From a virus (lineage: Duplodnaviria > Heunggongvirae > Uroviricota > Caudoviricetes): a DNA stretch of 30,262 bases. Under the pieces are notes generated by a model. The model saw only the letters and a program-made list of their open reading frames with translations, was not told the DNA's origin and ran no database searches. A program made the position numbers and the translations under genes. The first letter of the stretch is position 1. Each line of letters begins with the position of its first letter. The DNA lies in the IMG/VR virus record IMGVR_UViG_2534681935_000039, positions 1 to 30,262 of that record, one strand, 5' to 3'. Positions 14,275-14,857 of the stretch are shown one piece after another.

Positions 14275-14316
14275 GGCGGTGATGGTTTCCCTTGAAGGAC
14301 TATCACCGCCCTTTTT
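14275..14316 (+). terminator. rho-independent terminator after the tRNA
   Basis: GGCGGTGAT ... ATCACCGCC 9-bp stem (inner TCC/GGA pairing in the loop) followed by CTTTTT. Confidence 0.5.
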
Positions 14317-14429
14317 ACAGCAGGACGCCATTGCGATGACTTCATGCTGTAAACCCGTGCAGCCACGGAAGGCATAACTCATTGCTTCCAGTTCGCCCGG
14401 TTCGCCTGGCATTTTTTTAAGGTGAGATT

Positions 14430-14810
14430 ATGAACGACCAGCAAATCGAAAAAGAAATCGTTGAGAAAGGCAAAACCGCTCCGCGAATCACCCCGCAGCA
14501 CATCGAAGACGTGATTAAAAGCGAGCATTACTTTACTGCTTATGATGGACGAAATGGTGCCATTTCCAGCAACGAATATTGTGGCAGGGAAAAACCAGAA
14601 GAAGGCGATCGTGATTTATCACCATTGAAGTTGCTCACTTTCTGCGTACTGGTGCTGAAGAATGGCTTCACCGTCACCGGAGAGAGTGCCTGTGCAAGTC
14701 CGGAAAATTTTGATGCAGAAATTGGTCGGAAGATTGCCCGGCAGAATGCTGTAAACAAAATCTGGATGCTCGAAGGTTACTTGCTGAAGCAGAAGTTAAG
14801 CGAGCAATAA
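14430..14810 (+). CDS. gp49/gp66-like phage protein of unknown function (126 aa)
   Basis: Conserved block LLTFCVLVLKNGFTVTGESACASPENF...IGRKIARQNA recalled from the N4 gp49 / Sf6 gene 66 family; AAGGTGAG RBS before ATG 14430; opposite strand to flanking structural genes. Confidence 0.5.
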   Translation: MNDQQIEKEIVEKGKTAPRITPQHIEDVIKSEHYFTAYDGRNGAISSNEYCGREKPEEGDRDLSPLKLLTFCVLVLKNGFTVTGESACASPENFDAEIGRKIARQNAVNKIWMLEGYLLKQKLSEQ

Positions 14811-14830
14811 CACCGTGACATGTCACAAAC

Positions 14831-14857
14831 AGCCAGCCGATGAGCTGGCTTTGTTTT
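14831..14857. terminator. bidirectional terminator between convergent genes
   Basis: AGCCAGC-CGATGA-GCTGGCT stem-loop followed by TTGTTTT on plus strand and preceded by AAAC, so U-run on the minus transcript too; between stop 14810 (+) and stop 14901 (-). Confidence 0.5.

Follow-up and report, generated by a model that had tools for sequence, protein, structure and literature searches.

An Acb4-family gene occupies an exchangeable slot between terL and the portal operon of an epsilon15/phiV10-like prophage of Escherichia coli

What does a single small gene do that runs against the morphogenesis genes of a temperate phage, and when would it be expressed? The question is raised by IMG/VR virus record IMGVR_UViG_2534681935_000039, of which we analysed a stretch of 30,262 nucleotides (nt), hereafter called the window. 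The window is an epsilon15/phiV10-like (Uetakevirus) prophage integrated beside guaA in E. coli. In about 24 kb, its only plus-strand features are an open reading frame (ORF) for a protein of 126 amino acids (aa), which has a good ribosome-binding site (RBS) and lies between two terminator-like hairpins, and an adjacent tRNA-Arg. An earlier note, made from the letters alone, had picked out this lone plus-strand coding unit, and the RefSeq annotation of the same prophage in E. coli APEC O1 bears it out (the tRNA aside), with all other coding sequences, from the tail genes to the cro-like gene, on the opposite strand. That note took the gene for an insulated cassette, expressed in the lysogen and belonging to a family of unknown function. 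Here we report that the gene is a homologue of anti-CBASS 4 (Acb4; CBASS, cyclic oligonucleotide-based antiphage signalling system), and we argue, with a probability of about 0.62, that it encodes an Acb4-type sponge carried in a cargo slot that stays silent while the phage is a prophage and becomes active upon infection or induction.

The 126-aa protein matched the Pfam profile PF13876 (Phage_gp49_66) from end to end (profile positions 1-82 of 82) with an E-value of 3.4e-35 and 120.8 bits against a cut-off of 27, and it also matched PHROG 322. This hidden Markov model (HMM) search, which the earlier note had asked for, confirms the gp49/66 family call. The family is no longer one of unknown function, since PF13876 was characterised in 2024 as Acb4, whose members are sponges for CBASS cyclic dinucleotides (Chang et al., 2024, bioRxiv 10.1101/2024.12.30.630793). 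Table S3 of that paper lists the exact protein of the window under UniProt A0A0H2Z1H7 (E. coli APEC O1). Gp66 of phage Sf6 (Q716B1), the namesake of the Pfam family, shows one difference from it (D3G), and 483 sequences make up the cluster of near-identical proteins. Because it is a catalogued Acb4 homologue, the gene as such is an ordinary finding. A PADLOC search matched neither the Acb4 homologue nor the other genes found at this position (see below), and gave only low-complexity coiled-coil matches. An ORF that is 98.1% identical to acb4 at the DNA level in phage Huey (positions 2504-2884 of our locus L009) is labelled 'anti-CRISPR protein' in a 2025 record; it is probably a mislabelled member of the anti-CBASS family.

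The protein that the work cited identified as Acb4 is gp1.3 of Bacillus phage SPO1, a protein of 96 aa that forms a tetramer, sequesters CBASS cyclic dinucleotides and restores phage growth on a CBASS-carrying host (Chang et al., 2024). The crystal structure of the tetramer with cyclic GMP-AMP (cGAMP) is PDB entry 9E4W, the dissociation constant for 3'3'-cGAMP is about 157 nM, and cyclic UMP-AMP (cUA) and cGAMP isomers are bound as well (Chang et al., 2024). All eight of the homologues that were purified bound 3'3'-cGAMP and none of the eight bound cyclic di-GMP (c-di-GMP), binding of cyclic di-AMP (c-di-AMP, cAA) was seen only with homologues from phages of Gram-negative hosts, and eight modelled homologues all folded as tetramers (Chang et al., 2024). 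By analogy, the window protein may be expected to form a tetramer and to bind a cyclic dinucleotide.

The predicted structure points in the same direction. A phmmer search against the PDB found 9E4W at E = 0.007, over the segment beta2-beta3-alpha4. An AlphaFold2 model of the 126-aa protein, computed with 58 homologues as input (pLDDT, the predicted local distance difference test, 92.1; pTM, the predicted template modelling score, 0.81), has helices at residues 3-12 and 22-28, a strand at 29-36, two helices at 37-46 and 58-68, strands at 69-76 and 81-87, and a helix at 96-125. It reproduces the 9E4W-type monomer fold, a three-stranded antiparallel sheet with N-terminal helices and a long C-terminal helix, and places the helices 37-46 and 58-68 as an insert between beta1 and beta2. 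When Foldseek was run with the model against the PDB, the top 13 matches were all chains of 9E4W (probability 1.00, template modelling score 0.59-0.71), and the next match had an E-value of 0.25. We then compared the ligand-pocket positions K36, F48, E49, V56, Y57, F62, N63, I66, T70 and K81 of SPO1 Acb4. F48, F62 and I66 are kept as F80, F94 and I98, and N63, which makes a backbone contact, aligns with D95. Judged from the model and the aligned positions, the fold and the hydrophobic core of the pocket are retained and the base-specific contacts are not.

This loss supplies the first points that count against a sponge like that of SPO1. Among the residues that contact base or phosphate, four more are replaced (E49 by T81, V56 by C88, Y57 by A89 and T70 by I102), neither K36 nor K81 has an aligned lysine in the window protein, and a 27-aa helical insertion stands in for the loop that bears K36. 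In SPO1 Acb4 this loop is 4 aa long (SPKS), and its K36 reads the guanine edge (Chang et al., 2024). Since the base-specific contacts are not retained, the specificity of the window protein cannot be read off from that of SPO1 Acb4, and with contacts altered and the K36 loop exchanged it could differ. Homologues that differ in specificity nevertheless bound cGAMP (Chang et al., 2024).

The same insertion is where the relatives vary. We compared 27 distinct Acb4 alleles from this slot (loci L010-L089) and found a mean pairwise identity of 79% in the N-terminal segment (first 37 aa) and of 97.5% in the C-terminal segment (last 59 aa; aa 68-126), while the middle segment, from 'FTA' to 'LLTFCV', fell into 6 unalignable types of 16-30 aa. 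The Acb4 authors, who mention only 'extensions', did not describe this pattern (Chang et al., 2024). On the evidence of the allele comparison, it suggests recombinational exchange of a module beside the pocket. Lying where the pocket opens, the six helical inserts could serve specificity or evasion, as modules that recombination shuffles in an arms race with CBASS or with host sensors of sponges.

A rival idea is that the Acb4 fold serves another target here, either because the enterobacterial clade that has the helical insertion binds a different immune signal or because the insert mediates a protein or RNA contact unrelated to CBASS. Just 3 of about 10 SPO1 ligand-contact positions are conserved, the K36 loop is replaced in 6 unalignable versions, the published family description includes a dsRBD-like monomer fold (dsRBD, double-stranded RNA-binding domain) and extensions in some homologues (Chang et al., 2024), and Acb4 is often fused to other sponges (P0100, P0107), i.e. 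it is modular. We nevertheless consider a different target quite improbable, as 3'3'-cGAMP was bound by each of the eight diverse homologues tested and the pocket and interface core (aa 68-126) is the part that is conserved at 97.5% among the alleles.

The gene stands in a position that is itself variable. We surveyed 80 IMG/VR prophages whose TerL proteins are at least 98% identical and counted the 77 loci with both anchors; two loci hold two cargos and were counted under both. The interval between terL and the small gene on the other side ranged from 787 to 1949 bp among these prophages. An Acb4-family ORF was found in 38 of the 77 loci and a 140-aa protein of PHROG 4846 in 17 (plus 2 with a truncated copy). 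The other cargos were a membrane (transmembrane)/coiled-coil protein of 201-310 aa (PHROG 4780; 8/77), a 110-aa protein (5/77), a 115-aa beta-repeat protein (PHROG 3163; 4/77) and a 99-aa protein (1/77); no ORF was present in 4/77. The seven cargo states thus include both presence/absence and replacement. In most variants compared, the left flank was conserved up to 14418-14437, which takes in the RBS and, for the majority of them, the ATG, and the right flank resumed at 14806-14814. In the empty slot 14434 is joined to 14814 with about 25 nt between them, and the RBS and ATG are kept. Position 14430-14810 is a dedicated, ORF-precise exchangeable slot between terL and the portal operon. The discrete accessory cassette proposed in the earlier note therefore stands, with conserved flanks and an ORF that is swapped or absent in prophages otherwise at least 98% identical.

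Salmonella (SPN9TCW) and Klebsiella relatives have an equivalent slot, occupied by different cargos. Proteins of 168, 263 and 93 aa are further cargos in the slot of relatives. For the alternative cargos (loci L004, L005, L006, L020, L028, L033, L090, L091 and L092), no Pfam or PADLOC assignment was obtained and PHROGs gave no function; they are candidate anti-defence or exclusion genes.

An inert passenger, a scar left by recombination of phage modules and not under selection for any function here, would also account for a slot that is empty in 4/77 loci and for phages of the type of phiv142-3, which is without cargo. We regard this as very improbable, because the ORF is intact in 38 of the 77 loci, has a near-invariant core and belongs to the large near-identical protein cluster mentioned above. 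Furthermore, its ORF-precise boundaries recur in unrelated phages: 14427-14803 is the only DNA, at 97.6-98.4% identity, that the window has in common with three P22-like phages (Sf6, IME10, Huey) and the Klebsiella phage phiKp_30.

When would the cargo be expressed? No sigma-70-like site was detected between the tRNA terminator and the ORF (14311-14429), by scan or by eye, and a separate acb4 promoter in this interval was rejected. The TTGACA at 13796-13801, upstream of the tRNA, is the only good -35 on the plus strand here. The promoter-like site to which it belongs (Table 1) stayed under the threshold of the scan because its -10 matches at just 3/6 positions. This -35 is part of an AT-rich block that does not vary between relatives from the three host genera (E. 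coli, Salmonella, Klebsiella); TTGAC and ATTATTACCTTT are both unchanged there. The -10/+1 region of this site is overlapped by a palindrome, TTACC-N5-GGTAA, which has 10 matches in the window compared to 0.38 expected, a count not attained in any of 100 shuffles. At the sites that we read (PL-like, 25283; replication-side, 22118; terS, 16987), a -10-like hexamer comes immediately before the palindrome. In addition, the GenBank record of epsilon15 annotates repressor and integration host factor (IHF) sites at the equivalent place. TTACC-N5-GGTAA is probably the operator of the prophage repressor, because of this excess of copies and because they include sites on both sides of the CI-like gene. 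The simplest reading would be a dispersed-operator system that controls several lytic promoters, by analogy with the C1 repressor of P1, which likewise has dispersed operators. With its promoter overlapped by the repeated palindrome, the tRNA-cargo unit would most likely be silent in the lysogen.

The opposite view is that acb4 is a lysogen-expressed moron, constitutive in the prophage and of benefit to the host or the prophage, e.g. by modulating the host's nucleotide signalling or by pre-loading the sponge before induction. Its anatomy is that of a classic moron, being insulated, on the opposite strand, variable by presence/absence and provided with its own RBS and downstream terminator, and some of the alternative cargos are membrane/coiled-coil proteins, a kind that is often prophage-expressed. 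Near-identical phages do differ by presence/absence or replacement of a gene followed by a terminator, as morons do, but at the sequence level no prophage-active promoter of its own was found between the operon and the ORF. Moreover, a hairpin with a U7 run abuts the RBS, the sole good upstream promoter is overlapped by the palindrome, and a constitutive sponge would disarm the host's own CBASS, at a cost to the lysogen. An anti-defence sponge is expected to act in lytic growth, which also weighs against expression in the lysogen. We therefore disfavour the lysogen expression proposed in the earlier note and think a moron of this kind unlikely.

The hairpins around the gene were examined next to this question. 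The one after the tRNA, with a 14-bp stem and CTTTTT, is the upstream terminator that the earlier note had described; it starts 44 nt after tRNA-Arg and lies inside the left flank, which stays conserved no matter which cargo is present. The second hairpin, directly before the RBS, is weak in the window (one mismatch) and has a perfect 6-bp stem followed by ATTTTTTT in SPN9TCW and in Klebsiella BUCT711. Relatives in E. coli, Salmonella and Klebsiella keep this hairpin, and its stem shows compensatory changes (L090, 2376-2403; L091, 1728-1752). It is a candidate for a second site of termination, or of attenuation, on the way from the tRNA to the cargo. The gene does have a good RBS; the note had called it strong. 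Downstream of the ORF the note had placed a bidirectional terminator; the hairpin is there on the plus strand, but its bidirectionality is not clear, as the scan made no minus-strand call and the next letters on that strand are GTTTGTGAC. Terminators are annotated in relatives too, after the ORF in phiV10 and before its own ORF in epsilon15. The 2-kb scan gave 4 terminator-like sites compared to 2.2 +/- 1.7 in shuffles, which is not significant alone; the two flanking hairpins gain weight because they are conserved in relatives. As a separate observation, the leader from the tRNA 3' end to the start codon (14232-14445, plus strand) has an unusually strong fold (-78.2 kcal/mol, z = -3.95), and its minimum-energy fold pairs the RBS with letters immediately 3' of the tRNA.

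In the arrangement that we favour, an Acb4-type sponge under repressor control, the plus strand carries, in this order, a promoter with its operator, the structured RNA (about 240 nt), tRNA-Arg(UCU), one terminator, a conserved leader with RBS and ATG, the exchangeable ORF and a second terminator. Repressor bound to the operator palindrome would keep the tRNA-cargo unit off in the lysogen. Infection or induction would turn the unit on, at the time when the phage needs a protein against CBASS; polymerase would reach acb4 by reading through one or two intrinsic terminators, and the product would soak up the cyclic dinucleotide alarm signal of CBASS. Besides the changes in the pocket, the following points stand on the other side of the balance. 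The -10 of the promoter is poor (TACCTT), the protein that would bind the operator is assumed, and two terminators lie between the promoter and the acb4 ORF. Operators precede terS too, so the operator argues just for lytic expression and does not establish an 'early' timing. Sf6 carries the same ORF in its late operon, and early expression is therefore not universal for the gene. Finally, some cargos (the membrane/coiled-coil proteins) look more like prophage-expressed exclusion genes.

The RNA in this arrangement is the most novel item near the gene: an element that is widespread, unannotated and supported by covariation, and that abuts the 5' end of the tRNA. Four proposed helices (22 pairs) were evaluated in 29 representatives that are less than 93% identical in the extracted segment. 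In this set, 97.8% of the cells were paired, compared to 27-52% when the partners were slid, 9 pairs showed compensatory changes (57 cells), and the observed score was reached by 0 of 500 shuffles. The covariation of the 3' hairpin is a judgement by eye only. The G-U pairs fit the plus strand. With RNAalifold, a long-range GCACAU/AUGUGC pairing came out ahead of the local P1 helix; the invariance of that pairing is uninformative because one arm lies inside the 18-mer used to collect the sequences, so it was set aside and the covarying local P1 hairpin was tested instead.

The RNA element is conserved at about 80% identity in unrelated phages. It lies between trnI and ban in P1, P7, D6 and SJ46 and just after cI in cdtI, other lambdoid carriers are mEp460, Stx2c phages and Ayreon, and 1839 of the 5426 complete E. 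coli genomes (34%) contain it. None of the 40 E. coli matches listed carries an RNA annotation on the element. Rfam searches of 13400-15000 (E <= 1) and of 13880-14160 (E <= 10) returned nothing but the tRNA, and a full-text literature search for the core sequence of the RNA returned only unrelated Caenorhabditis elegans papers.

The place of the RNA element resembles that of a put site. In cdtI, the cI terminator is followed by a strong PL-type promoter (TTGACA-16-CATAAT) with a palindromic operator and, about 30 nt downstream, by the RNA element, and a co-directional CI-like gene lies just upstream of the element in 51 of 120 loci. In lambdoid phages the element would stand at the start of the PL-type early transcript. 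In the window, the promoter and operator (13796-13832) are followed by the RNA element, the tRNA and the two terminators, a position comparable to that of HK022 putL after its PL-type promoter (PMC9378689). A tentative extension of our reading, which we would not call likely, is that acb4 forms the last part of a repressor-controlled counter-defence unit opened by this RNA, possibly a new antiterminator class or an anti-defence RNA. In the first case the element, put-like in function but structurally unrelated, would carry polymerase through the terminators into acb4, and a role as antiterminator would tie together the anatomy of the cassette. Like the window RNA, putL and putR of HK022 and putL of HK639 are located downstream of a repressor-controlled promoter with terminators further on; unlike it, put RNAs are about 70 nt long with two stem-loops, whereas the window RNA has about 190-240 nt and at least 4-5 helices (at least 4 of them covarying, over about 170 nt). 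A profile search with the RNA (nhmmer) against HK639 and HK022 (24-31 kb) gave chance matches only, one of them inside the nun coding sequence, and homology to put RNAs was rejected. Separately, the P1 hairpin bears a short by-eye resemblance to HK639 putL.

Several observations concern the surroundings of the slot. The stretch 13500-15500 is 99.8% identical to 'phage PH444' and 96-97% identical to phiV10 and APEC O1, and it was found in 1202 of the 5426 complete E. coli genomes. AGA, the codon read by the tRNA, occurs 4.16 times per 1000 codons in the structural and terminase genes (222-17047), roughly twice the E. coli average, and is densest in the tail genes at 222-2024 and 5550-8021. On the minus strand, the start context GGAGTCATTGA(A/T)ATG is common to the small gene and the portal gene (13745-13770 and 13505-13530, respectively). 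An invariant AT-rich block with the repeat AAATTATTACC at 13750 and 13812 suggests a divergent promoter region; if this is real, the portal operon may have its own promoter and not be fed solely from terS-terL. An ORF of 83 aa on the minus strand (14161-14412), annotated as a hypothetical protein in phiV10 (p04), TL-2011b and EC.W1-9, was rejected; running antisense to both the tRNA and the terminator behind it, it is probably no gene.

Table 1. Features at and around the cargo slot, with the repeated palindrome, in coordinates of the window.
Feature	Position	Strand	Basis or remark
acb4 homologue (Gp49 / Sf6 gene 66 family), 126 aa	14430-14810	+	PF13876, Table S3 of the Acb4 paper, model
Region for hypervariable insertion (aa ~41-67), beta1-beta2 junction in Acb4 core	14550-14630	+	allele comparison, model
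Promoter-like site, TTGACA, 17 nt, TACCTT; faces structured RNA, tRNA and cargo	13796-13824	+	read from sequence
Operator-like palindrome TTACCTTTCAGGTAA, overlaps -10/+1 of the promoter-like site at 13796	13818-13832		pattern count
TTACC-N5-GGTAA	13818		promoter of tRNA-cargo cassette
TTACC-N5-GGTAA	16969, 16987		directly upstream of terS
TTACC-N5-GGTAA	22118, 22180		upstream of replication-side genes
TTACC-N5-GGTAA	24124		near cro-like gene
TTACC-N5-GGTAA	24461, 24509		between cro-like gene and CI-like helix-turn-helix gene (24579-25163)
TTACC-N5-GGTAA	25221, 25283		past CI-like terminator, around TTGACA-17-AATTAT promoter
Structured RNA, ~240 nt, unannotated	13915-14150	+	covariation
RNA helix P1	13915-13935	+
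RNA T-arm-like hairpin	14033-14047	+
RNA hairpin CCUCG-GAAGAGA-CGAGG	14066-14082	+
RNA 3' hairpin	14093-14099 with 14142-14148	+
tRNA-Arg, anticodon UCU, reads AGA	14155-14231	+	ARAGORN; Rfam tRNA 73.3 bits
Terminator-like hairpin after tRNA, 14-bp stem (14275-14310) then CTTTTT	14275-14316	+	scan
Second hairpin, GCCCGG-TTCG-CCTGGC + U7, directly before RBS	14395-14418	+	read from sequence
Shine-Dalgarno AGGTGA, 4 nt before ATG	14420-14425	+	kept in most cargo variants compared and in empty slot
Terminator-like hairpin after ORF, 7-bp stem (14831-14850) then TTTGTTTTAT; right slot boundary	14831-14860	+	scan
terL	14901-16376	-
Small gene	13521-13727	-
Portal gene	11827-13506	-

Hundreds of E. 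coli prophages contain a gene annotated 'Gp49 family / hypothetical' that may now be read as probably encoding a sponge against CBASS. This reading is mainly of corrective value and bears on the prediction of temperate phages that escape CBASS. What goes beyond the published description of the family is the ORF-precise slot downstream of a tRNA in Uetakeviruses, its apparent wiring to the prophage repressor via a dispersed operator, and Acb4 alleles that differ almost only in a helical hairpin at the nucleobase-contact loop of the SPO1 protein. Of the observations made near the gene, the structured RNA most of all deserves to be followed, and with it the ORF-precise slot and the hypervariable insert.

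Compared with known systems, the gene is close to each in part. SPO1 Acb4 is likewise small and phage-encoded, belongs to the same Pfam family, has the same alpha-beta-beta-beta-alpha core and shares F48, F62 and I66; it has 96 aa where the window protein has 126, the identity over the structural alignment is about 23-25%, and the window protein comes from a temperate phage of a Gram-negative host, a source from which homologues also bound cAA. Gene 66 of Sf6 is nearly the same gene (125/126 aa identical, and 97.6% identical in DNA over exactly the ORF), but there it runs in the direction of the late operon, with the lysis genes on one side and the terminase on the other, and has other flanks without a tRNA or terminator bracket, whereas the gene in the window occupies a dedicated slot on the opposite strand. 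Gp03 of phiV10 and the epsilon15 homologue share the slot, the flanks, the N-terminal ~20 aa and the C-terminal 59 aa and differ in a central insert of another, unalignable type (the phiV10 protein has 123 aa); in the stretch of epsilon15 examined there was no tRNA, and the tested part of the structured RNA was unmatched there. Morons and anti-defence hot spots offer the broadest likeness, as a single ORF with its own RBS and terminator between conserved operons that varies among relatives. The slot described here differs from them in that the exchange is ORF-precise, between a fixed leader, whose RBS and ATG are kept even when the slot is empty, and a fixed terminator, and in that the unit seems to rely on an upstream promoter under repressor control and not on a constitutive one of its own.

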